From Haplodiscus bocki (taxonomy: Eukaryota), in the NCBI GenBank assembly GCA_965655095.1, contig OZ296649.1:38626001-38690000 (forward strand): a stretch of 64,000 nt of DNA. Reading direction: 5' to 3'. Under the pieces are notes generated by a model. The model did no database searches. It saw only the letters and a list, made by a program, of their open reading frames with translations, and was not told the origin of the DNA. Position numbers and translations under genes: made by a program. Of this stretch, positions 8,755 to 55,445 are shown piece after piece. The first letter of the stretch is position 1, and each line of letters starts with the position of its first letter.

Positions 8755-9243
8755 GGCTACAGGTCACTTGCTATAATTATAGCTGTTCACTTGCTATAAT
8801 ATAGATTATAGCAAGTGACCAATATCTTTATAGCAAGCGACCAATAATTTTATAGAAAGTGACCAAATTTTAGAGCAAATATAACATCAAAATATGTCAA
8901 AATTCCATACTAACCCTAACCCTAACCCTAATCGTAACCCTTCGAACATATTCATAACACGACTGATTTCGCCTACAAATAATACCACAACATGCAATAT
9001 GTCAATGCAATTCCGAGAGAAAGAAACCCCGGGAGTCGCAGAGACAATAGCGCAGCCACAAGTGTTTGAATGTACATTTTAACGTTCATAACGAAATTTT
9101 TAAATATTGGTCAGTTGCTATAAAATAAATAGTCACTAGCTATAATATAGGTCACTTGCTATAATAAAATTCTAGCAAGTGACTTGCTATATTATAGGAT
9201 CCATTTTGGTCATTTGCTATATTATAGCAATTGACCTGCTCCC
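8755..9243 (+). mobile_element. MITE copy 1 (8-bp TSD, GG termini, internal telomere-like repeats; Merlin-like by end structure)
   Basis: Termini GGCTACAGGTCACTTGCTATAAT ... ATTATAGCAATTGACCTGCTCCC. TSD CTTCTAGC at 8747-8754 and 9244-9251. Many subterminal GGTCACTTGCTATA repeats. (TAACCC)n at 8911-8940. A near-identical inverted copy lies at 54782-55325. Confidence 0.9.
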
Positions 9244-9689
9244 CTTCTAGCGACTGAGGAGAAAAGCAAGTCGTTAGTCTGCACAAACAATGGTAGCGGT
9301 AAAATGTTCAGTAGTCTCAAACAGTTCGCGTAACTAGTCTGCTTGCCCATTTTCAATCCCACAGGTTTCTTTTGGAGCCTCACCAGAGTATTCGTGGTGC
9401 TTTTCGATAGTTTGGCTCTGAAAAGTCAGTAAATGGCAACTGGAAGCAGTAGAGTTAGAGGCTCCGTTTGATGTTGGTTTTAACATTGTAGGCGATGTTT
9501 CGCCTGAGAAACAAAAAAACAGTACAGGCTGTTTTTGACCTTTCGCTACCGAATGGATCAGTTGAGTTCTTTTTATACAAAGATACTCAAGTCTTTCACG
9601 TTTTCTGGGCCCTCGAAACTGATAATACCGAAAATATATTCCATGTAATTATATTCCATATTTATATTCCATGAAATGAAGTTTGTAGC

Positions 9690-13699: not shown

Positions 13700-16600
13700 G
13701 CTAGGTGGCCACAGAACAGTTGATTGTAATCTTGAAACAGATTCTTCGCTTTTTCAGCAGAACTTTCCTCACGACACGCTATGAAGAGAACCACAGGAAA
13801 CTGAATTCAAGTCTCACAGCTGAGAAAGAAGCAAAACCTAAAGTCAAGCTGAAAAAACCGAAAATTTTTTACAGATATCTCCCTGATTAGATAGAGTTTC
13901 AGGCAAAGGACATTTACCTGCAGAATGTTCAGACAGTTTGGGAAGGCCTTTTACAATCAAAGTAGTGACTATTTAAAAATTGCAAAACTGAAGTTCAAAA
14001 CCGATCTGTCCTCAAAAATCGTCAAAAATAACATTCGCAAAAACATCAGTACATTCGAAGAGTTCCACGTATAACGCTGCAACCATTGAAACAATTTTCA
14101 TTCAAAATTGCCGGGAAAATCAAAGACACTGTGTCCATTGCTTTCGGTGAAAATATAAAAAAGTGAAAAACATAGGCACTAAGGTGCTTAGAGCAAAATT
14201 CGCAAAAGTACGCAACCTCTTTATTACTTTGTTAAAAACATGCTTATGCAATGCCGGAGAGCTTGAAGAAAAACCCAGACAGTTTAGGCACAGGACAAAC
14301 AAAAGAGATAACAGCGGAGTTTCAAGGTAGCTATCCTACCTTTAAGCAAAAATCAGCTGATAAAGTTTCGCCTTCTCAGAAGGCATAATACTCTCAACCC
14401 ATTTCGCGGAAAAGAAATTGAAAACTGGCCAGATTTCGAAAGTTTTCCCAGAAACCTCATAGATGTTGGCAATATACCGAACGCCAACTGACCGCTATTT
14501 CTCGAATTTCATTTTTTTGATCACGCCCTACATTTTCCCGAGTTTTTGCTCAACTAACTACATATGACTTTGAAGCAGCAGTAACGGCACTGTGAAATCA
14601 AATTTGCAACCCAAACATCCGAGAGTTTCAAAAACTACAGCTTCGCAACTCAAAACTTGACCACAAGAACGGTAGCCCCGAGGACTTCTTAGTACAAATG
14701 CAGATGAAAGCGACACAAGCTTATCTTGATTCAGAATTCCCACCTATTTCATCAAGTAACCCGTTGAAAAACCAAGAAGCAATTGGCAGAGCTCAAAACG
14801 CACAAGGCGCCACGTAGCGGCAATAGACAATACAGTTACAGAGCGAAACAGCAGAACCAAACAAAACCTTCACGAACGCCATGCCGAACTTCATCAAAAA
14901 AACTACTGGAGCGAAATGAACCAGCAACAGTGCACAAACACTGTAGGGTTGCAAAAGCCCCAATGGTTTTCTTCGAACTCTGCCCAAGTGACAACTGGAC
15001 AAGAGATGCCTACCATGAGGATAAGTCGACACTTTCAAAAACATAGTACGAACAAGAACAAAAATTACACATAAGCAAGATGAACTGAAACAGCAACAAA
15101 CTGGCTCGTTTAAGAAAATCAACACCCCGATTGTTCTGAATCATCAAAATCCAAATAACAGCAACAACAGTTTCAGCCCTCACGACGAAGTAACAACAGA
15201 TTTAGCAACCCACGAGGATTCCGAGGACGAAGTTAAAACATTAATAGAGTATGAGTTCGCTTCAATAACAGCAGAAGACACTCCAATTAAATTCAAAGCA
15301 GAAAAAACTACAACTCATAGTCCATTTATAACAACATAAATGCAAGAAACGACCAACCAAGAACATATAGCAGAAAAAATATGTTGAGGACAGGTATCTT
15401 ACAGTTGTGGCTACCTGAACAATTAGGCAAGAGATTGCAACCAAAGGAGAGCTGCAAATGGGAATCAACAAGTAGAATATCAAACCGCACCAAAAGAACA
15501 ACTGAAACCACGCCAGTATCAATAACAACCGTGGGAGACCAAGAATGAGCAGAATTAAAAAACTGCATGCATTTTTTTTATAGATGATGTTTCATCTTTT
15601 GTTCCTCTGAAGATCCCTAAAAACCAACAAAAGCATGCAAAAATAGATCCTGGTGCCTGTGGAAGTGCAATCAATGGAAAAGTCTACGAGTACTTGAAAT
15701 CATAAATCGGAACAACAGCAACCATCTCTCAACCATCTGAGGTCAGTAAAAATAAATTAACTTCGGGATAAGTTATACCTCTACCTCGTCAAATCCAACT
15801 CGAGCTTTCAAAAGCAAAAAGCCCTTTCTAAGAACAATTTTTAGTACCCTCAAACCCAAACATCAACGTTTTGGGAAATCCACTTTTCAAAAGCAACTCC
15901 CTTGACCTCCACCAAAGACAGAACTGGATTAAACTACCCGATTTATTGCTAAAGTTGAGCGGAAGATCAATACAAACAAACCAAATCGGAGAGCCGCAAC
16001 ACACTATCAGAACAAGGGAAAAAAACGTCATTGCTCCAAACCAACAATTAACAACAGGTTGTAACCTCCAAACGGAAACCAAACGATTTGCTGATGTATG
16101 TGGTATAGTCGAACCAAAAGTCAGTTTCGAGGAAAAGACTGGACAATGCGTGACTTTTTCCCCATAACGAATTAACTCCGGAAGAAATTTGTTTTATCTG
16201 TCTGAAACATCGAAACCAATGAGATCATTATTCTCTGAGACTTGGACAAGGCATACTTCAAATCTCTTTCACTACAACAAGCGGAGACATTAACCACGTT
16301 AGACCCCCAAGTACTAACTATGGCAAAATTCGAAAACCCAGACAACTTTGAGATTGAATTCAACCAGCTGATAATAGAAAAAGACTTTATTGTCAATTCA
16401 CACTAACCCAGGCCCAAACCAGACCACAAAATTTTTTTCCCAACAGCTGAAATATGCAAAAACTTAATTACACTGAGATGTTTTGAAAAAAGTATATAGA
16501 ATGAGTTACAGAAGCTACAAGTATTAGTTAGTAGTGACTCCCCTTGTCAACAGTGCAAACCATGATCAGGTTAAAGTGTCGGACATTTTTCACACACAGA

Positions 16601-19560
16601 TTTGATGTTGGATATATATCAGAAAATTCAATGAAGCTAACCACAGAGCATGAATAACCAGTCTATACCCAAATCCCGCTAACGCCGACTCAATTACGTA
16701 AGAAACTGAAAGCAAAACTTGCCCTCCTTCAATATTTTGCAAACATCACAAGCATCAACCATTCGAAAAAGAACAGTCAAATTTTTGCACACTGCAAACC
16801 AAATGGAAAATTCAGAAATCTAATGGATTTAGGCAGGATCAATCACCTTCTCTTAAAAAAATCCTATAACAACAACTTCCAGATTTCAACGATGGCAGAA
16901 ACAACAGCACGTTTTGCTGGTAAATCATTCTTTTGTAACTTCGGTTGCTCCCAAGCCTACCATTGTGAACAAACGGCCAACCCTTTTTCAGTACAACTAC
17001 TTGCATTCAATTTCAGTTCTAGATTTTTGGCTGAAAAGGGATTAGCTAGAGGTCTGAACAGATAAGCTACAGGGTTCAGTGCTTTTGTCAGAAACTACTT
17101 GCAACTATGCTTTTCTGCCAATCACTGCAAACAGTTCTTGGATGAAAATGGACGTGGAGTGGAGCCAATTGAGCATTTCATATCTAACTCACGACTCAAC
17201 TTCAGTCGCTCACGCAGATGAGGGCTCAAACTAACGCCAAAGAGATATCTTTTTGGATCAGAACAATTACTTTCCTTGAGAACGTTTTAACAAAAGAACG
17301 CCTTCAACCTGAATCGAATAACAATGAAAAGTTCCTGAGAAATGCCAAAATCAGTGGAGGAAATTAATTGATTAAGGCTTCCTTTAAATCTTTCGCCGTT
17401 TCTTCCCGAATCTGAGCTAACAGCTAATATTTTTTTTTACATTTTTTTGAAGGAAAATGTCTCATTTGAAAAAACAGGCGAAATCTAAACAACTTTCGAC
17501 ATGCTCTGAGAAGTACTCATAACCACCACAAACCAGGCACTTTGACTTGCTAAACCAGAATTCCAACATGCCATTTTATGTGACGCTAATGAACACTGGA
17601 GCGGTTTCGTATCTTTGATAGAACACTACACCAAGAGCATCAAAAGAAAAAATATTAAGTCTTAGCGTATGTGTCATTTGGATTGCAATTCTTCAATACA
17701 GTGGAACTGAAAATGTCAATATACTGGAACGAGTTCCTATCCCTCTACTTTGCCTCGGAAACTTTCTTCAATTCAAATGGGGAAATGAAAAATCAGACCT
17801 CGTGTTGACTGACACTAAATGTTTGACAAAGTTTCTTCGAACCGAGGCAATTCTTCCATCGCTTTGGATTTATGCACACAGAAAAAAAGCATTTAACATT
17901 GTAATTGCTCATATTCCATCGCAACCTAACGCTGCAGCAGATTTTCTGTATTGCTTGCAAAAAAACCGAAGGAAGCAAATGAATTTAAACTGTCAGATAG
18001 AATCTCGATCACACTGATAGAGACTGATAGACGAGCTGACCCACCATACAACACAATCTTTGAGCTCTTTGCTGACAATTTAACTGTTGACCCACTTCAA
18101 ATAGTGGATAGAAACTTTATGATAACCCTGAAACAATCAGGAAACTACCATAACGCATTGAACCAATAAAAAAACTGACATCAAACTCGCAATTATAACT
18201 AACATCTAACATAAAGCACAAACGAAAACAACAGAAACTAACGCAATTCAACATACCAAACCAACGAATGACTACTCCGTCTTTGAAACGACAATAGCTA
18301 ACCTCGAAAGGGAAAAAAATGTCACTCGTTGGGAAAAAAGTGATCTATTGGTTGGAAACCCATTCCGCATCTACAGCAAACAACTATTTTCTCGGAGAAG
18401 ATCAAAAGTACCTCGAGTCATTTCAACGAGCTTTTATAGAGGAAGGAATACTTTACAGACGCAATCTTTCACGAGATGGGAAATTGTTTTACAAACATTT
18501 GTGAGTAGTGAAAACAATACTAGATGGAATCATGTACAGAATACACAACTGGAGGACATTTGGGAATAATGCGAACTATTGAGGAATTCAGAGAACGGTT
18601 TTTTTGTCCAAGCTATGTGGAAATAGTCGCATACTTTAGCAGAAACCATTTTATATGCCTGCAAATGGAGCAAGTACAACCCTGAAGACCTAAAACAACC
18701 CTACAAGATGTTTTGACATTAAAGTCTTTCCCTGAAGACTTCCTGCAAAGAGACATTTTGGGACCCTTCCCATCGTCACCATACAAGTATGTTCTAACAA
18801 CTTCTGATCTTTTCACTAAGTATCTTTTTGCAGCACCACTGACTACAATAAGTGCACTATCAGCGGCAATAGCTTTTAGTCTCCATTATGTTCCAACACA
18901 AATATACACCACAGGAAATGCTCTCAGACTTGGGAACGCAGTTTTTGTCTGTAATTTTACAGGAGCTCACTCAACTACTAGAAATAAAACTTTCGCATGC
19001 ATTATTAAAACACCCAGAGACACCTGGAGTAGTGGAAAGGACACACGCAGCACTAACGAGAATAATGAAACTCAACAGCAACCAAACTTTCACCAACTGG
19101 CACAAAAAGTCTAAGTTAGCAACATTCATCCATAACACTTCTTATTATAGCTCAATCGGGTAAGCACCAACAGTTATTTTCTAAAGACAAGATCCAGTCA
19201 AACCTTTGGATTTTTGTTCTACAGTAACCGTATTGGAAAATCAGCCGTGAAATACGACTTCTTGGATTATCTATGTGACGAAATAATAAAGAAAATTCAG
19301 ACTACACAAGAGAGCCACACCAAATCATTCAACCAATGCAAGAGGTACTATGACCAAAAAGCAAGGGAGAAACCCCTTTTTGGAAAGAACATATTGTTTA
19401 CTGCTAAAACCTCGACCTATTGAACAGTCTGCCTTCAGCCCTAAATTATTCCAAAAATGGCTTGCTTTGTAAAGGTAAGAAGGAATGTTAACCAACTCTA
19501 ACTACCTTTTCAGAGAGATTGGAACGAACTAAGACAATTTTTCACCACTTTAGACCTGAA
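13700..19560 (+). mobile_element. Decayed Ty3/Gypsy LTR retrotransposon gag-pol (PR-RT-RH-IN order)
   Basis: Q/N/R-rich gag-like region. Protease IDPGACGSA (~15643). RT KPNGKFRNLMDLGRINH, FAGKSFFCNFGCSQAYH and QFLDE (~16795-17150). RNase H ILCDANEHWSG (~17572). Integrase DILGPFPSSPYKYVLTTSDLFTKYLFAAPL, SDLGTQF, HPETPGVVERTH and FIHNTSYYSSIG (~18750-19160). LTRs were not identified. Confidence 0.9.
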
Positions 19561-20233
19561 CATCAAAAAGCAGACATGGACATGGAAGATGTCAACTCCC
19601 AGAACCTTCAAACGGACACAACACTTGGGTTTTAACAAGGTGAACAGGACTTCTCTAACAACGGTTTTCCTTCTCTTCTGGATACCGATCAAGTTAGACA
19701 AGAAAAGAAAACTCCGAACGTGGACAGCCCAGTCCGTATCTGAATGTCTTTTGGTGTAAAACCCAAACAACCACTGCCGGCACAGGAGACAGTCAATCAA
19801 CCTGATCCTGTGCCCGTTGTTGCACAACTTTTACCTGCTCACCAAGCTCAGAGACCCAAGCAACCACGGAGGATACTTACACCACCACCATACCTGTCAA
19901 CAAATATACCTGAATCTTTAAAAGAGTCTGGTGGAAACGTTGAAAATAGTACAGAGCCGAGACGCTCGACAGGCGAGCAACAACAAGAGATCAATAGGTT
20001 TAACGAACAAGTTCTTGAATTGGCTGGACAACAACTTTAAGGAAACCGAAGTGCTAAACGCACAAACCAAAGACAATCGGTCGAAGCAAGAAGTTTTGTC
20101 GAAATCATTAACATGTCAAATGCAAATCATGTCGAATGCCATTCGTACAAAAACTAGTAGCAACACAAGGAGGGGTATCTCAAAAATAGACATGACATCA
20201 AAGAGATACAAGTAGATCAGAAAACCTCTCAAA

Positions 20234-20620
20234 ATGATAAAAATGGAGGACTATGTTTTAGGAAATTCTTCTAGCATGGGGCACTGTGTTTCTTCTCTTT
20301 TTTTCATGGGCACAGGCATTTGTAAGCGATCTGGCCGACTCTATCGACAAATGAAAAACAATGCTTCGGGACAACTCTCACCACAAGATGAGTCTTTGCA
20401 TTTTACCACCAAAATTCACGAAGATGTTGTATATTATTTGAAAACGAAAAAATCCGATTACTTTCATCAGCTTTCTCATTAGGCGCTGAAAGGCAGCCTC
20501 ACTATGATGCGCAACTACGATTGAGGTCATGGAGTGTAAAGATTCAACTACCAGATATTGGGTGTGGCTTGGAAAGTTCCAACCAATCAAAACGCACGAA
20601 AATCGACGTCAATTAATCTC
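20234..20620 (+). pseudogene. TARG1/OARD1 (Poa1p-like) macrodomain remnant, downstream of the Gypsy integrase
   Basis: SMGHCVSSLFFMGTGIC (cf. SLAHCISEDCRMGAGIA), VVYYLKTK (cf. YIYYLITK), ALKGSLTMMRN (cf. LQKSLEAMKS) and, after a frameshift, IQLPDIGCGLE at ~20542-20574 (cf. LSMPRIGCGLD). Confidence 0.8.
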
Positions 20621-21479
20621 CAAAGTCACAAGTAGCGATGCAAATCGGTGTGATAAGTAAAACTTTGGTTGAAAAAACAACTAGGCAGACATTGAAAGGA
20701 AAATATTTACAAAAAACAACACAGACGAAGTCAAATAGTAACAGCGAAACCAAAAAGGACCAAACTTTCTAAGAGTTGACGAACAAAAAACACCCCTGAA
20801 AACCTATCGAATGAAATTTATGGACAAATGAACATAGAGAGCAGGCCCATGCTAAGTTACACTGGAACCACAGACAAAAAACCGCAACTGAGAGATGCCT
20901 CATCCTCCCAACTCAAAAAACCTTGCCATCTCGACCACAAAAAACTTAAGTACCACGATACTGAAAATGGTCCCCACACGAAACTTATTAGTTTCTGCGT
21001 CCAATTGGGTAGTAAAGTAACCACGAAAGCTTACAAACGACAGGAAAATAAGAATAAACCGAAATTGTTTTGATATCGTGTACCCAAACACAGAGTAATT
21101 CAACCATGTAGACCAATCGGCGAAAGTAGGCCAAATTAGAAAAAAATACCCCAAAGAAAGCAAAAAAACAAGCGGGACGCAATAGGGTGGTTTGTGTGGG
21201 CGTACCAAAGCCCAGAACTACTTTTTGAACGACTTCATCGGATCTGCGATTTTGATAACTAGCCGACTACACAAATTCTCTCGGCTCGACTGAAGACAAC
21301 AATCACACCATGCCGTGCATTCCTATTTTAATGAACATTCTAGAGACGGCCAGACGACGAAATACAATGTAAAGAAATATACCTTTAGGTGCAAAAGAGC
21401 TCCGAAGGAAAAACTAACCCTGCTTTGAAGTAGTCGCCTTCCTCATCCTTGCCCCAAATCCTTTTATTGTAACACCACT

Positions 21480-22110
21480 TCAATTGCGACCCTGCACACC
21501 AGGAACCTTTCCACTTCGTGATTTTGCTAGACTCAAGGTGGTCATCTCTAAGACTAACGCCACGGTATCCTCCAATTTGATGTTACGAGAGAATAAAGCA
21601 TGCCGTTCGTTGGTTGCTGTTACAGAGAGTAAAAAATGTACACCTAATGCAGGACAAGACACAGCGGCAACCAAAAAATGGACGCCGAAAGATAAGTTTG
21701 GAAACTGAAAATGTATTAGGTCCTCAATGAATCTGTCTAAGTGGCTGTCAACCAGATCATTAGTGAGATGATTTGTGGCTGAAGAAAGATCAGGGGCAAA
21801 AATTCAGAGTTTTCTACCCATCAAAAGCGATGACACAATTGCAGTCGGCGGTTCCACGTCACGCTGCCAATCTGAACAATCATTACCACCTCCAAGGAAT
21901 AGAATGAGAGAACATACAATGTCCAAAGGTACAATAGTACTAATAAACCAAGTCTTTATTGGGTTGAAAAGACGAACTTTGGACATGAAATCGGAACTAA
22001 CTTCTGTCTCTGGAAAAGATACATTGACCCTGTTCTCCCCCGACATATTGAACTTGGAAAAGAAATGTTTTTTTTACCAGTAGAGGTTTCGCTAAAACGC
22101 CACAGCTCTT
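21480..22110 (-). mobile_element. Probable LTR-retrotransposon integrase (zinc-binding region) fragment
   Basis: Minus-strand H.G... followed by CVLSCIRC gives an HHCC-like spacing. Heavily decayed and truncated by the gap. Confidence 0.3.
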
Positions 22111-22111
22111 C

Positions 22112-22311
22112 NNNNNNNNNNNNNNNNNNNNNNNNNNNNNNNNNNNNNNNNNNNNNNNNNNNNNNNNNNNNNNNNNNNNNNNNNNNNNNNNNNNNNNNNN
22201 NNNNNNNNNNNNNNNNNNNNNNNNNNNNNNNNNNNNNNNNNNNNNNNNNNNNNNNNNNNNNNNNNNNNNNNNNNNNNNNNNNNNNNNNNNNNNNNNNNNN
22301 NNNNNNNNNNN
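22112..22311. other. Assembly gap (200 N)
   Basis: Run of N. Confidence 1.
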
Positions 22312-23309: not shown

Positions 23310-23571
23310 GGTTGTGCAACTTAATATTTGCTCTTGCCTGAGAACTGGAGCTCGTCAGCGGAATCCGCACACGCTAATACCGAAGCTAGCGTTAGTGGAC
23401 ACTGTCTAGACTCCAGCGGCAAGAGTATAGAATAGGTAAGAGGTTGTGCAATTTAGGATTCAATCTTGTTTCAGAACCGAAGTTCGTCCACGGAATCAGC
23501 ACACGCTAATACCGAGCTAGCGTTAGTAGACACTGTTTAGACTTCAGCGGCAAGATTATAGAATAAGTAAG
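23310..23571. repeat. Two-unit tandem repeat, period 132 bp
   Basis: GGTTGTGCAA...CACACGCTAATACCGA(A)GCTAGCGTTAGT.GACACTGT.TAGACT.CAGCGGCAAGA.TATAGAATA.GTAAG starts at 23310 and again at 23442. Confidence 0.9.
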
Positions 23572-34331: not shown

Positions 34332-34884
34332 NNNNNNNNNNNNNNNNNNNNNNNNNNNNNNNNNNNNNNNNNNNNNNNNNNNNNNNNNNNNNNNNNNNNN
34401 NNNNNNNNNNNNNNNNNNNNNNNNNNNNNNNNNNNNNNNNNNNNNNNNNNNNNNNNNNNNNNNNNNNNNNNNNNNNNNNNNNNNNNNNNNNNNNNNNNNN
34501 NNNNNNNNNNNNNNNNNNNNNNNNNNNNNNNNNNNNNNNNNNNNNNNNNNNNNNNNNNNNNNNNNNNNNNNNNNNNNNNNNNNNNNNNNNNNNNNNNNNN
34601 NNNNNNNNNNNNNNNNNNNNNNNNNNNNNNNNNNNNNNNNNNNNNNNNNNNNNNNNNNNNNNNNNNNNNNNNNNNNNNNNNNNNNNNNNNNNNNNNNNNN
34701 NNNNNNNNNNNNNNNNNNNNNNNNNNNNNNNNNNNNNNNNNNNNNNNNNNNNNNNNNNNNNNNNNNNNNNNNNNNNNNNNNNNNNNNNNNNNNNNNNNNN
34801 NNNNNNNNNNNNNNNNNNNNNNNNNNNNNNNNNNNNNNNNNNNNNNNNNNNNNNNNNNNNNNNNNNNNNNNNNNNNNNNNNNNN
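34332..34884. other. Assembly gap
   Basis: Run of N. Confidence 1.
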
Positions 34885-36800: not shown

Positions 36801-37244
36801 ACAGTTTGCACAACATACTGAAATAGAGAATACATTTGTTAACTTCATACACTGAAGATTCAAACTCAAATCAGGTGAAGACAGCAGCAATCCATTTAAA
36901 AAGGTTTACCACAACAACTAGGGTTGAGCGGTACCTTGAAATTAATTATTCTAAGAAGTTCTAATACCTGGTCAAAATCTAAATTGATTCCACTACAAAA
37001 AATAATTGAAAAATGCAGTATTATCTCAATTTTTTGCAATAAAATATAGCTGCTGCAATCGAAATTGAAGTAAATTTGACAGGTAAAGCCAGTGGAATCT
37101 CTTAGTAGTGCCGCTGCCCGTTCTTTCTAGAATCTGCTTTGGTTCTCCGTATATCAAATTCATTTACGGAGTCGCTCTAAGCAGGGAAGATTATGTTTGT
37201 TTAACAAAAGTGACAATATTGCCAATATGGCAACAAGAAGTCTG

Positions 37245-37472
37245 AGTTTTCATTTGTTTCAAAATTTCGGATGCGAGGACGGTTGTTTTGAAAAGGTTCT
37301 TTTGGGATTTTCCTTGGGATTGTTTTAATGAAAAATACTTAAATTAAAAAAATTGAATTTAATTTCGGGTATATAAAAGTCCATTTAGATAGTACTCTGG
37401 CGTAGAAACCACAAGAGAGAAACACAGACAAGTTTACAAGCCACAGAGATAAAACTTTTCAGAGACATGTTT

Positions 37473-37512
<40 letters not shown>

Positions 37513-37820
37513 TTTTTGTGCTGATCAAGTTTCGGTGTCGAATGATGATGATTTTTAAGGCTCACAGTTTTCAATTTTTGTTGAGGACAAGAATTTTCAA
37601 AAGAATTCTCATGCCGGGGCTCCGAGCACAAACATGCAAGAAACGCAACAAGACTGTTGTTAAAAATACATATTATCGGAAGTTATGCAAAAAGGCACAT
37701 GAATTGAGGGGCTCGGTTGAAAGTTTCAGTAAAGTGAGAAAAGACAAGAATGTTTGAAAATTTCGCTTGATTTTTTTCTCTTTCTTCCTTTGGCTTAATT
37801 TTGTTTTCGCTTGCATTGCC
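37245..37820 (+). repeat. Dispersed repeat copy A, containing (GA)n at 37479-37507
   Basis: Collinear with 41250-41830 (TCGGATGCG.GGACGGTTG, ACTCTGGCGT.GAAACC, ATGCAAGAAACGCAACAAGA, TAAAGTGAGAAA). Confidence 0.8.
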
Positions 37821-38249
37821 TCTTGCTTTGTTTGTCCACGCCTCCGCTTGCTACAGCCATCTTTCCCACGTGAGATTGTTTGCATCGAAAGTGAACGGGA
37901 ACTCCAATGATTCCTTTCACAGCTGTGGGAAGGCCATTTGCGGCTCTCAGATTCCGGGTGCAAGTTTTCAAGGTATTTTGACATAATTATTTCAGGTCAT
38001 TGTGAATTTCCGGTCTCAAATATGACACAATTGCTCCACAATCAAAATACTGCATCTACAATTTTGTCAAAATTTTTCATTTCTACGAAGACACTGCCAA
38101 GGTCAACCACTTAATTCAGAGTTACAGTTTGTTGGGGGACATTTGAGGCGTTCACATCGGTACGAAAGCTCTTTTGTGTAGAATGTTGAAATTTTCCTGT
38201 TTAGCTCTTGGGCCTCGACACTCCCGTTGGAAGTGACCAACGCGAACGC

Positions 38250-39275: not shown

Positions 39276-41249
39276 GGTAATGGAGCTCTGGCGGTGATTT
39301 TGAGTATGAATAATTTTCACTCATTGAAAGGTGGTCTGTGAGTTAACCAAAGCGTGCTCAATTACAAAGTCTTGTTTACGTATATGGCGTTATTCAGCTA
39401 ATCGCGAATAAAATCAAGTCAAATTGAGAGTAAGAGGAAAATTTTTCAGGTCGACAATTTTCTGGAGGAACATTTGGACGTGATAGTTGAAAAGTTTGAT
39501 TGAGTCTCCGTAATCGTTCCGGCCGTTTTTGTTGATAAAAAGTAGAGCGTGAGATGGACACTTGCGAGTGCAATTGACAAAGTGTTTACCGTCCTCCTGA
39601 GTCATGCCATTAGAACGTCAGATGACGCCAGTCAATGCGGGGGCTCTAATCTTACTTGTTCCGTTACGAGCGGGAAGCTAGCAAAGATGGAAATGTGAGC
39701 AGTTGCTATCGGTTAGAAAAGTGCGCAAAACAGTAAGATTGATTGCTCAAATCTCGGCTAAGCGCGTATGGGAAGCTTCTAGTTGAGTTTTTTTGCTCGT
39801 ACCTAATAACTGTTTCAAAGTATCCTTGAGAAAGTTTGTGTGATCCAGACAATGGTCAGGGAAGTTAAATTCCTCAAGATATGACTCTAGGAGGACTTCA
39901 GGTTGGTCAAAAGAAAGCAGGTTATGGTTTTAGGGGTAATACTTGAGAGTAATTGGAGATTCATCCACCTGGCAGTGATATCAGAGGCTTACGAGTGGGC
40001 TCTTTGGCAGGTTTGTAACTGGTGATGCTACAAGAAAAAAAATTCTAATGGACTACGTTGTGGGGGCAAAATTTAGAACCTTACATTGTTTCTCAGATTC
40101 CGTGGAAATTTTTTGTTGAATTTAATAAGCTTGCACCAGGAAACTTCTGTTATTCTGCGCCCGTGGTACAGAAAATTAAAATTGGCATCAATGCGACGTA
40201 TTTTTACAACCAAGTTTCTAGCTAATTGAAAGAAAACAAAAGTTGTGGATGTGCAGGCCAATGCTGTTTCTCGCCTAATTTATGTGACTCAGAAAGTTAG
40301 ATGTGTGCTGACTGTCGTGGAGTAGCAAAAGATTTATTTACAGAAATGAAAGTTCCGATGTTGATTGGAACGTTTGTTCTGTGTTCTCCTCGAGGTGTTG
40401 AATCAAGCCAGAGGTTTCAATTAGGTAGAAAATACAGACTTTTCGTGGGATTTTGTATTGGGGACAAAAATTTTGGTTGAGAAGTTGAGGCAAAGTGATG
40501 CAACCGTTAGTCGAGTCAAAAGAAGAGAAAACATTGCAAATTTTGATCAAAAAGCGACCAAGTTTTCATTGGTGTGATGGCGCAGCTAGCAGCTATAATT
40601 TTGAATTGCGCGAGAATGAAGGCTTGTCCTAGTAGTACCAGTCGTAGAAGAAACGGCCCGCAAAAAAAGAAAAAGGCAATGAAACAGACAGATGTGATGT
40701 CAAAACCTGTTCTTCTGGAGTCGTTTTGGGAGTAACGTGGCGGAGGGTCAACGGGTTGGCTGCGGTTTAAGACATACATAGTAATTCGACTGATAAGGTT
40801 ATGAAACACTATTAAGAATTGTGAAAAAACTAAAAGTCTAAATGCAAGCCCTCCCAGTGTTCTATACATGGTTAAAATTGAATACCGATGAACCAAACAA
40901 ACATAAAATAGTTTCTCATGTTTATATGTTCGATAAAAACTAAAAAGAAGACAATTAAATTTAACATTTTCAAAGAATCATTCAGAAAAAGAACGACAAC
41001 TTTTCCGAACTCAATTGATTTTGCCTACCTACGCGCCTTATCTGCCGTCTCAATTAGATTTCGAAAGTGGAACATAAACTAGCGGTGGCGCGAGACAAAT
41101 CCTGGGGAAGAGATCTTGAGGCAGTTTTTTGGAAAGTTACAGTCACGCTACATTAAGATGTTTTCAGTTAAAATGATTTGGAACAATCCCACTCCTGTCA
41201 CCAAGCTAACAAATGCGTTAATAGCGCCAATTAAGCAACAAGAGGTTTG

Positions 41250-41830
41250 AGCTTTCATTCGTTTCAAGAACTCGGATGCGGGGACGGTTGCCTTAAGGAA
41301 GTTTCCATAGGATTTCCTTTGAGATTATTGCAATTGAAAAACGATTTTATATACAAAATTGAATTCAATTTTGGGTAAATACGAAGTCCACTGAGATGGC
41401 ACTCTGGCGTGGAAACCTCAAGAGATGAGAACAGAGAGGTTAACAAGCTGCAGAAAGGATACTTGTCAGAGCTAAAATGAGAGGGAGAGAAAAAGGAGAG
41501 AGAGAGAAAGAAAGAAAGAGAGAAAAAGAGAGAGAGAAAGAGAGAGTGAGTGAGAGAAAAGAGGTCTTTCTGTTCATCATGTTTTTTGTCAAATGTTGAT
41601 GATTTTTTTGGCTCGCAGTTTTCATGATTTCTTGAATACCAGAAATTTTACAAATTTTTTCTTGCTGGGTCTCGGTGTGCAACTATGCAAGAAACGCAAC
41701 AAGAATAAAATTCTAAAGTAGGCAATAATGGAAGTTATTTGTAGAGGCACTTGAGTTGTGTGGGCTGGGTGAGAACATCTTTAAAGTGAGAAAGGAATAC
41801 TTTTGGAATTTTTCTCCGGTTTTGTTCTTT
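41250..41830 (+). repeat. Dispersed repeat copy B, with a compound GA-rich tract (~41478-41560)
   Basis: Homologous to 37245-37820. Confidence 0.8.
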
Positions 41831-43149
41831 TTGTCTCTTGTTTTTGCTTGTTTATGTTTCCGTGTTTTCGATAGCATGGTCTCTGGTTTTGTTTGTCCAG
41901 TCTTCCGCTCGCTACACTTGAACCTTGAGTGGTTCGATGTATCCCAAATTGAAAACTCTATTTGTTTTCAACTCGTTATATTGTTCATCCCTCTTTGGTT
42001 CAAAAAAATAGTTTTCCAAAGACATTTTCACAAAGGGTACAATATGCGCATTTCTATCATTTTCCATGAATTTTGTATAGCAATCTTTAATTTGGTATTT
42101 AAGACTAAAAACATTGCTTGGAGTCGTGTCACCAAAGTTGTTCGCGGCTTGGGAAATTTGTTTAGATTCCTTTCAGCTCTATTTCTTTGCATTAGAGTCT
42201 AGATAGCGTGGTGGGCTGCTATAGTGGTTGTACTGAGATGGACGGTTCGTGCCAATGCTGTTCTTTTGGTTGTTCCTTGGGTTGTGATAGGGCAGAAAAT
42301 CCTCTGAGAAGGGGGAAAATAGCAAGCACTAAGTTTGTTTTTATGTATGGACAGATCGCTTGCGAATCAAAGCTCTAGTGTAACTGTAGGCAAACTAGGT
42401 GGCATTTTGAGAAAATCATTTCAACTGGAATTTATTGCCTCAGTGTCCAGATGGTGTCGCGGGTTGCTGTACTCGGGTCGAAGTTTCCTGCAAATAGAAC
42501 ACTATCCAGAAAGTAAATGCAATGTTTGGACAATTCAGCAGGAATTAATTCGAATGACTTGAATAGATCCACGTAGAGAAGAACCACATTTGTGTAGATT
42601 GCAGGGTCTTCCTACACAAAAACATTCTATGCACATTGTAAATAAGTTTGAACTATTGACAAGACTGAAGTTTACTCGTTTTTTGAAAATTCACGTGTCC
42701 GTCAATTGTGTCAAAGATCTGGTTTTCGGACGACTCGCATGTGATGATTTTGATTTTGAGTATCAAAGACTTGGATGAGATTGTAGGCAATATACGTGAA
42801 GCCTACGTCAGAAAAATGCTAGAAGGTGGGTCAAAAAGGGCGTGCGGAAATCATCAAAAAACTTTCTGCATTGTTTTTTGGTAATTCTGAGGCCCCGAAA
42901 AGTTTCGTTTTGAAGATTTGCTTCCCTTAAACTGATCTTTGTTCATATATATCGTCAAAAATTGAAACCTTAATAAACAATTGGATTGTCAAAACACGGA
43001 CATCTATAAAACTGAGCACAACAAAATTTTTCTCGAATGCGCGTAGGAAAACGTGAGCAATCTGAATATAGTGAGATTAAGTCAAAAGTCAAATAAAACT
43101 AAGGCAATTTCCAAAAATCTCAACATTAAAAACCATCAAATTCTGAATT

Positions 43150-52879: not shown

Positions 52880-55445
52880 ATAGTTTCTTGCCCACGGATT
52901 ATATCGACAGTTCAAACCGTTATTCCCACTGTTTCAACAGACCACGATTCAGTATTATGTTCTTTGCAGATTCCCATGAATGGAAAAAAAGTCTTCTATC
53001 TCAGACACCAACGTGAAAGTTGCCGCCAAATGTGTTACAAACTTCTTCGTTTATGCGAATTGTAACTGTGTGTACAGATCATTGGATCCCAACGAAGCTC
53101 TGGGTCAACTAAATTCTATCATGTATTCCGCATTTCACATCTCCTGTCCAACTCGCCAAGTGACTCTCCGTGATCGAGATCCCATCTACGTTACCCCTGC
53201 CGTCAAACTGCTAATAAAACAGCGAAACAAACAATTACGCAAACAAAATGCAGCTGAAGTTATAGATTTGAACGAGCGTATTCGAAAACTTGTTCAGAAG
53301 AACTGCCCAGTTCTCGATAAAATTGGCTCCCGCATTTGCTGGACACATATCAATAGTCTTTCGAAAGATAAACACCCTGCTTCGCCCGTCAACGTTGATG
53401 TGAATAACCTTAATTGGTATTTCAATTCGTTTTCAAATGACCATAACGGCCAGCCACAATTAGAGAAAATTGATTTTCCAACGAGGGACATCCCCTGTTT
53501 TTACCCTGTAGAAGTTTATCATTATCTGAAGAAACAAAAACAGACGTCACACGAATCTAGTGGTCTTCCGTTTTGGATATTTACTCACGCAGCTGAAACT
53601 TTAGCAGAACCCATTTGCTCGTTGTTTAATCTCATCTTACTCTCGCGCACTGTCCGTGACGTTTTCAAGATATCCAATATCGGACCTATTCCAAAAGTCG
53701 CTCGGTCAACACTTCCGAATCATTTTCGACCAATCGCAGTCACTCTAATATTGTCGAGGTTATTTGAACGCATGCTATACGATGAATACATAAAAAAGCC
53801 CTATATCACGTATATTTGCTCAAAACAATTTGGTTTTCGACAGAATAGTTCATTGTGCAGTGCCTTCATTAACCCACTTCATGACGTGTGTTCTCTGCGA
53901 AAAATTTACAACTATATTCGACTTATTACACTGGACATGTCAAAGGCCTTCGACACTATTCAACATTTGGAAATTTCCAAAGAAATCTCCCGATGTGTAC
54001 CTCCGCTTAACGAATATGTGGTGGACGTTTTAAAGTGTTTTCTGACTTCTCGCAGTCATTACACCTCCTTGGGTTCCAGATTTTCGCCGCCGGCTTCAAC
54101 TAATCTTGGTGTTCCCCACGGGACAAAAACGGTTCCTATTTTCTTCAATTATGCCGTCAATGGCACCTTTCGATGAAAATGTTTAAAGTCACCTAGCACA
54201 GGAATCACAGTATATGCTGATGATAACACTCCTTTGATAGGCGGCACTTATACAGGCGGAGACAACGCACTCGATATTATACATAAATTTGGTGACCACT
54301 TCTGCACCAAGAACCTCTCTTTCAACGCTGACAAAAGCTCTGAAATGCTGTTGAATTTTGGTCGAGATGACGTTCCACTTATCTCTGGCATCGACAGAAA
54401 GTCTTCTGTTAAATTACTTGGCATCTTATTCGACGAAAAGTTGAGTTTTAATGATCATGTGAAATGCATCACAAAACAAGCCACTGCCAAGTTATACGTT
54501 GTTTTTCGGTCAAGTAGACTTGGGTTCTCTACTCGTGAATTAACACTTCTTTATAAGGCTTCGGTATTACCCACACTTACGTATTGCTGCTCAGTTTGGG
54601 GCGGAATATCTGATGAGAGCCTCCGAAACCTTGACAGAGTTCAGTCTAAAGCAGTTCGTCTCGGGATCATCAACGAGTTCACTCCTATAAAAGACATCAT
54701 TCGTATCTCCGATAAAAAACTATAGAGACAGATCCTTGACGAAGGTGAGAATCATGTCCTCAACGAAATACTGCCAAAAAGGGGAGCAGGTCACTTGCTA
54801 TAATATAGCAAATGACCAAAATGGATCCTATAATATAGCAACTCACTTGCTATAATTTTATTATAGCAAGTGACCTTCTTTTTTATAGCAAGTGACTTTT
54901 TATTTTATAGCAACTGACCAATATTTAAAAATTTTGTTATGAACGTTAAAATATACATTCAAACACTTGTGGCTGCGCTGTTGTCTCTGCGACTCCCGGG
55001 GTTTCTTTCTCTCGGAATTGCATTGACATATTGCATGTTGTGGTAATATTTATAGGCGAAATCAGTCGTGTTATGAATACTGTTTGAAGAGCCCAATTCA
55101 TAGCAAATGGCAAATGTTCGAAGGGTTACGGTTAGGGTTAGGGTTAGGGTTAGTATGGAATTTTGACATATTTTGATGTTATATTTGCTCTAAGATTTGG
55201 TCACTTGCTATAAAATTATTGGTCACTTGCTATAAAGTTATTGGTCACTTGCTATAATCTATATTATAGCAAGTGACCAGCTATAATTATAGCAAGTGAC
55301 CAGTTATAGCAAGTGACCTGTAGCCCCAAAAAGAGCCCCAGGCACGTCCGGTTTACGAGAAAAAAGACCACCAGTTGAGGCAACCAAATTTGAACCAGAA
55401 CTAAGACTATTTCCCTCTCGTATACTGCGTTCTTATCAGATATAA
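52880..55445 (+). mobile_element. 5'-truncated L2/Crack-group LINE ORF2 in intron 1 of B3GNTL1 (interrupted by MITE copy 2)
   Basis: End of APE (TDHDSV). ORF 52980-54176 has PIPK, FRPIAVT, QFGFR, LDMSKAFD and GVPHGT. VYADD at ~54208. ORF 54234-54725 has VKLLGILFD..LSF..HV and LTYCCSVWGG. After removing the MITE the frame reads HVLNEILPKRAP...LR...FPSR to TAA at 55443-55445. Confidence 0.9.
54782..55325 (-). mobile_element. MITE copy 2 (inverted relative to copy 1)
   Basis: Termini GGGAGCAGGTCACTTGC ... GCAAGTGACCTGTAGCC. TSD CCAAAAAG at 54774-54781 and 55326-55333. (TTAGGG)n at ~55123-55153. Confidence 0.9.

Follow-up and report, generated by a model that had tools for sequence, protein, structure and literature searches.

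What a short coding stretch downstream of the integrase of a decayed Gypsy retrotransposon encodes, and whether it belongs to the element at all, is the question raised by this locus. In the window, i.e., the whole stretch of 64,000 nucleotides analysed here, a first-pass annotation had recognised a TARG1/OARD1-type ADP-ribose hydrolase macrodomain at this place and viewed it as cargo in the env-like position of the element. The question can be further discriminated into (i) the identity of the domain, (ii) its position respective to pol, and (iii) the role it could play there.

The Gypsy element and its surroundings

The presence of a Gypsy pol upstream of the domain, as originally claimed, is borne out by intact relatives, namely proteins with RVT_1, RT_RNaseH, Integrase_H2C2 and rve in that order, which align by tblastn along 15595-19526 in the order protease (PR), reverse transcriptase (RT), RNase H (RH) and integrase (IN). 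The decayed pol as a whole spans 15595-19680 on the + strand and comprises the following features:

15595..16538, + strand: protease and dUTPase-like stretch, decayed (tblastn with P0015 residues 47-230 and 269-363)
16586..17352, + strand: reverse transcriptase, decayed (128/255 identical to P0015; one frameshift, three stops)
17376..17966, + strand: RNase H, decayed (93/191 identical to P0015; three frameshifts, four stops)
18334..19608, + strand: integrase with zinc-binding part, core and C-terminal part, decayed (alignments with P0015 and P0001)

In P0015, an aspartyl protease is recognised at residues 51-144 (E 7.7e-5), together with RVT_1 (E 1.8e-20) and RT_RNaseH. For the integrase, identity amounts to 198/446 with P0015 over 18334-19680 and to 180/271 with P0001. 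By its pol domain order, its Gypsy-type RNase H and its integrase zinc domain, the element is classified as Ty3/Gypsy. A search with the integrase core returned 19 relatives, 59-77% identical, and nothing was found for the integrase in prokaryote genome scans. In the integrase tree of 17 rows, made of the window and retrieved relatives minus three short matches, the window clusters with 11 short or truncated proteins and is separated from the five long ones with 100/99 support. Between protease and reverse transcriptase, a dUTPase-like stretch can be discerned at residues 184-269 of P0015 (Pfam E 0.032, below the cut-off), corresponding to about 16000-16140 in the window. Other LTR retrotransposons are known to have such a domain between protease and RT (PMC6431247, excerpt). 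The present lineage may have two nucleotide-related accessory domains, i.e., a dUTPase-like one and a macrodomain.

Past the macrodomain segment, two further features occur before the sequence of the element is lost:

21415..22070, + strand: low-stop frame with hydrophobic start, decayed (three stops in 218 codons, 2/3000 shuffles, for a region picked after inspection)
22112..22311, no strand: assembly gap of 200 N, which removes the 3' end of the element

The downstream frame exhibits its hydrophobic stretch near 21415-21490 and returned no meaningful match in Pfam, PDB or PHROGs; it may be the ORF that truly occupies the env position of the element, or else an unrelated insert. Neither the repeat finder nor self-BLAST revealed an LTR-like repeat pair around the element, the 3' end of which falls in the gap at 22112, and no convincing primer-binding site was found at the element. 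As for gag, the region 13900-15650 contains no Pfam gag family and its stop depletion is weak (173/3000 shuffles).

Several other repeats and remnants are found in the window. Just past the 200-N gap, a 131-nt unit occurs as two adjacent copies (84% identical) at 23310-23571, in a region where the GC skew has the opposite sign to that seen within the element. Inverted copies, 89% identical, at 8759-9246 and 54779-55304 correspond to a MITE-like element of ~500 nt with internal 22-nt repeats, and a reverse transcriptase remnant, of non-LTR type by eye, lies in two adjacent frames at 52980-54722 on the + strand (RVT_1 E 4.5e-12). A diverged direct repeat at 37202-37855 and 41207-41916, 68% identical over 715 columns and with its copies about 4 kb apart, could be the old LTRs of another element, and a second assembly gap of 553 N is present at 34332-34884.

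A broken macrodomain and its sister proteins

All the TARG1 signature blocks previously claimed were found in order on the + strand at 20282-20571, within a domain interrupted by stops and frameshifts:

about 20222-20643, + strand: broken TARG1/OARD1-type (ALC1-like, Poa1p-like) macrodomain, as matched by the sisters-only profile (75.3 bits)
20282-20293, + strand: HCVS block, sharing its frame with the MGTGI, YYLKTK and LKGSLTMM blocks
20306-20320, + strand: MGTGI block, HCVS frame
20432-20449, + strand: YYLKTK block, HCVS frame
20447-20449, + strand: Lys codon at the position of the TARG1 catalytic Lys84 (YYLKTKK aligned to TARG1 YYLITKK; numbering counted on the 2lgr_A alignment)
20486-20509, + strand: LKGSLTMM block, HCVS frame
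20548-20571, + strand: LPDIGCGL block or loop (loop entry to 20574), in a frame differing from that of the other four

The profile was made of 10 sister proteins with the window row omitted; it matches 20222-20548 in one frame at 75.3 bits and continues in a second frame as far as 20643. The location initially given, i.e., 20234..20620, stands, except that the match begins slightly earlier and ends slightly later. Since the best of 20 shuffled windows reached only 0.2 bits against the same profile, the match is more than chance; no second macrodomain copy was found with it within the 64-kb window. Inside the domain, stops are located at 20480 and 20522 and frameshifts near 20230, 20375-20390, 20428, 20537 and 20572; which frameshifts are called depends on the reference protein, the break at ~20572 being obtained with P0028. 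Taken alone, this copy is hardly recognised by the usual collections: eight single-frame pieces gave zero Pfam families, which is a matter of decay rather than absence, the macrodomain piece gave zero matches in PHROGs, and in the PDB human OARD1/TARG1 filled the best five rows at E values of 0.28-0.36, which are not significant. Decay had been judged similar to that of pol, and it is indeed of the same order, perhaps slightly higher, with 10-14 breaks per kb in linker and macrodomain vs 5-12 in RT, RNase H and integrase, a comparison that is approximate as the reference proteins differ between regions. The window copy is a dead element, which itself does nothing.

The identity of the domain is clearer from its relatives. 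In a full-library search, 10 proteins matched the 96-residue main frame at E up to 1e-3 with 34-50% identity, and these sister copies, which have the TARG1 motifs in common, come from different 50%-identity clusters. The family profile, built from the 10 sisters and the window row, aligns with human TARG1 along the entire domain (E 1.7e-22; profile positions 73-214 on 2lgr_A 17-158), the next protein other than TARG1 appearing only at E 0.007, and P0025 alone matches human TARG1 at E 2.9e-18. Where the window copy on its own remains below significance in the Pfam and PDB comparison, the family sustains the TARG1/OARD1-class identity first put forward, and on these profile alignments the family domain is assigned to the TARG1/ALC1-like class, its macrodomain fold being predicted from sequence. 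General models respond unevenly, Pfam Macro being weak (1/10 sister proteins, E 0.058), the DarG model matching P0021 (E 1.6e-6) and P0025 (E 2.3e-5) far below its cut-off, and phrog_335 responding to the family macrodomain at E 9.9e-17. AlphaFold2 models of P0025 (n=2) were of low confidence, with mean pLDDT of 38 and 49 and the sheet not formed.

Regarding the origin of the domain, the family profile scores human TARG1 at 83 bits and four phage proteins at 66, 62, 60 and 29 bits, and the Atlas clusters nearest to the family macrodomain are mostly phage. The macrodomain tree (12 rows, without animal TARG1) is poorly supported, with one of nine inner branches starred; compatible with single or multiple capture and with a host or a phage donor, it neither shows nor excludes any of these. 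In the prokaryote genome scan, one macrodomain locus was discarded as a chance match falling within the last part of an unrelated gene.

Continuity with Pol and catalytic residues

Between the integrase and the macrodomain, two features can be delineated:

19609..19690, + strand: conserved post-integrase tail motif of Pol (matches P0025 from residue 9 onward)
19691..20221, + strand: Pro-rich then basic/polar linker, assigned as a decayed coding part of Pol (few stops)

What was taken at first for a Pro-rich spacer is in fact a decayed coding linker, as two frames of the region 19522-20121 contain 2-3 stops per 200 codons, where shuffles average 8.1 in the best frame, a depletion equalled in 10/3000 shuffles. 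In the window family, the linker is Pro-rich and about 200 residues long; that of the window is matched by 4/10 sisters, namely those reaching far enough upstream, and its last 200 nt match P0021 (39/66) and P0026 (32/66). P0025, a 349-aa ORF starting after the integrase core and stemming from a decayed copy, extends from the post-integrase tail through the macrodomain end (domain at about residues 205-349) without a stop and is the sole fusion example in the window's own subfamily. Its post-integrase stretch matches the tails of all five long Pol proteins (15.0 bits vs at most 5.8 bits in 1000 shuffles).

In three of these five long Pol proteins, the ORF also encodes a macro-like domain at its end, and the degenerate macrodomains at the Pol ends of this sister clade are located, with their scores against the sisters-only profile, as follows:

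P0011, residues 1006-1142: 38 bits
P0013, residues 1445-1591: 31 bits
P0015, residues 1704-1774: 22 bits

As a macrodomain, the tail of P0013 obtains an hhalign probability of 93.7 and falls among the Atlas Macro clusters (0.93, 193/256 features), and the tail of P0011 matches the DarG model at E 0.0024. By the sisters-only profile, the other two long Pol proteins, P0012 and P0014, end without a macrodomain, and the remaining 14 integrase relatives (211-530 aa) show no match, the best reaching 4.4 bits. No intact full-length Pol with a canonical TARG1-type domain was found in two word-index searches, both weak ones: that with the window macrodomain piece retrieved no longer proteins, nor did that with the family alignment (612-2000 aa, 8000 candidates scored). 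On the strength of the fusion in P0025, the stop-poor linker and the same-ORF domain in 3/5 long Pol proteins, the macrodomain is placed as the C-terminal domain of Pol, in the predicted architecture PR-(dUTPase-like)-RT-RH-IN-linker-macrodomain.

For catalysis, the acidic residue of TARG1 at position 125 is taken here to be Asp125. The PDB sequence of TARG1, in the alignment with P0025, shows Asp at this position, written Glu125 in an excerpt of PMC7050489, according to which TARG1 requires Lys84 together with the acidic residue at 125. The catalytic Lys is present in the window and in 4/5 sisters covering the position, and the catalytic Asp in 3/3 sisters reaching it. In the window, the codon of the acidic partner, right after LPDIGCGL, falls on a probable frameshift, so that the Glu read there is only apparent. 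Neither the catalytic Lys nor the catalytic Asp is found in any of the intact Pol tails of P0011, P0013 and P0015 (0/3), from which it follows that hydrolysis would be dispensable in the best-preserved clade. Every dyad-bearing copy found is short or broken. As judged from the alignments, the family exists in two states, namely (i) enzyme-like domains, in short or broken copies only, and (ii) degenerate domains, with which long open Pol proteins terminate.

Possible roles and known systems

The domain of this Gypsy family probably undoes or exploits host ADP-ribose marks, the role of eraser being ranked likeliest and that of a reader targeting integration being the bold rival. As part of Pol, the macrodomain would be made and packaged with the integrase, would either stay attached to it or be freed by the protease of the element, and would accompany the cDNA. 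Within the subfamily of the window, it would act as an active Lys/Asp eraser of host ADP-ribose marks carried by the cDNA, the ends of the genomic RNA or acidic residues of element proteins, and also by nucleic-acid bases, and by removing such marks it would keep PARP-type interference away from reverse transcription and integration. The sister clade, the long ORFs of which are intact, would still translate the domain, although the catalytic pair has been lost there. This overall explanation, i.e., a packaged, Pol-borne TARG1-type domain acting as a putative ADP-ribose eraser in the window's subfamily, is held with moderate confidence. It is established that RNA viruses use macrodomains against antiviral defence based on ADP-ribose; to our knowledge, no host ADP-ribosylation of elements such as the present one has been described. 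The substrates of TARG1 comprise protein-, nucleic-acid-end- and thymidine-linked ADP-ribose (PMC7050489, PMC8501950, excerpts), host ADP-ribosylation is countered by viral macrodomains (PMC7729036, excerpt), and the control of L1 has been tied to ADP-ribosylation through SIRT6 and KAP1 (PMC4695847, excerpt); no link between ADP-ribosylation and Gypsy control was found in the portions of the literature searched.

Alternatively, the domain could be mainly an ADP-ribose reader at the C-terminus of the integrase, the place of the chromodomain in chromoviruses, tethering the integration complex to ADP-ribosylated chromatin or DNA breaks with catalysis being dispensable, a reading considered rather doubtful. 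Its position behind the integrase, from which a flexible linker separates it, would suit such a function, and in the intact Pol proteins the domain stays open and can still be recognised although the dyad is gone, the clusters counting 25, 20 and 41 member sequences. However, the alignments reveal that these intact tails are altered in their Gly-rich loops and also in the Asp before the first loop, i.e., the parts that bind ADP-ribose in macrodomains, and the catalytic pair is retained in the window's subfamily. The ALC1-like class includes both readers and erasers (PMC7050489, excerpt), and chromodomains direct Gypsy integration (PMC9289625, excerpt). In a bolder combination, deemed improbable, one clade would encode an eraser acting on the cDNA or integration complex and the sister clade a dead reader steering integration to PARP-marked chromatin or breaks. 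If true, this would be the ADP-ribose counterpart of the chromovirus chromodomain, and such a two-clade family would bring indirect evidence of a host PARP-type defence against LTR retrotransposons.

It is likewise unlikely that the domain is a mere passenger, captured once, formerly useful or neutral and now drifting, or kept as a folded spacer or interaction module. The intact tails do show long branches and motif loss, and 2/5 long Pol proteins have no macrodomain. Respective to identity with the window, the domain presents no excess conservation over the linker (38/115 vs 29/97 for P0025, 60/125 vs 39/66 for P0021), so recent purifying selection is not supported. On the contrary side, the domain retains its full length and an open frame in three divergent Pol proteins, which occupy both sub-branches of the clade split from that of the window at 100/99, and the TARG1 motifs are common to ten copies of distinct 50%-identity clusters.

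The layout initially proposed, in which the cargo would have an ORF of its own in the env-like position, appears highly unlikely. While 5/10 sister proteins begin at a Met just ahead of the macrodomain and the window exhibits stops and frameshifts between integrase and domain, 4/10 sisters read through this position from upstream, the Met not being kept in all, the linker is poor in stops, and the domain is continuous with pol in P0025, P0011, P0013 and P0015; besides, the frame at 21415-22070 further downstream is a better candidate for the env position than the macrodomain. Scarcely credible, finally, is a processed copy of host OARD1 absent from sister elements, a case the first-pass annotation had itself envisaged, or an unrelated insert within one dead element: for all the lack of introns in the window macrodomain and the higher family-profile score of human TARG1 than of the four phage proteins, a lone processed host gene is ruled out since four of ten related copies share the pol-derived linker, the domain also ends intact Pol proteins and its decay is of the same order as that of pol, and by this common linker the reading can be regarded as already largely refuted.

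A TARG1-type domain at the end of a Gypsy Pol suggests that LTR retrotransposons met an ADP-ribose defence, or learned to use the mark. Dyad-bearing and dyad-less domains at the same position offer a natural comparison for this eraser-or-reader question. A retroelement with a macrodomain is already known; for a TARG1-type domain at the tail of a Gypsy integrase in two states, as delineated here from sequence comparison, no description was found in the literature searched. Poa1p-like macrodomains have been annotated automatically on polyproteins of animal retroelements, and the combination of Gypsy and macrodomain may hence already be recorded in databases, be it repeat databases, or in papers. 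A search confined to titles and abstract openings of mostly non-subscription literature revealed no Gypsy element with a macrodomain. Macrodomains are not mentioned in PMC6431247 or PMC9289625, nor are retrotransposons in the macrodomain passages of PMC4245714 and PMC7729036.

Among the closest known systems is human TARG1/OARD1/C6orf130 (PDB 2lgr, 2l8r, 4j5q, 4j5r, 2eee). As a full-length minimal macrodomain, it shows its motifs in the same order, and its catalytic Lys and Asp positions are kept in the window's subfamily. However, TARG1 is a stand-alone cellular enzyme, whereas the Gypsy domain forms the tail of a retrotransposon Pol and has, by eye, about one third of its residues identical to TARG1; unlike TARG1, the latter is broken in the window copy and its dyad is absent from the intact sister clade. 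Among viruses, TARG1-like homologues occur in many genomes, few with all catalytic residues (PMC4245714, excerpt). As for the Poa1p-like and TARG1-like proteins of phages and bacteria, P0025 is matched by 76 records from phages at E up to 1e-3, with 26-30% identity among the matches listed; in three annotated loci, phage macrodomains are short separate genes, and none is tied to an integrase polyprotein. In ray-finned fish, epsilon-like endogenous retroviruses are reported to carry macro domain ORFs (Basta et al., 2009, cited in PMC4977317, excerpt) and, like the present element, are LTR retroelements with a macrodomain beside core genes; these fish elements nonetheless belong to the Retroviridae and, by the review's description, bear additional ORFs, whereas the window contains a Ty3/Gypsy element with a predicted in-frame Pol fusion. 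Finally, chromoviruses with their chromodomain and an orchid Gypsy element with AlkB illustrate that a captured reader or eraser of a mark can be kept by a Gypsy lineage (PMC9289625, excerpt); AlkB of the orchid element is encoded by a separate ORF and its activity was shown, whereas the present macrodomain corresponds to a Pol fusion with a putative activity, for which the mark would be ADP-ribose.
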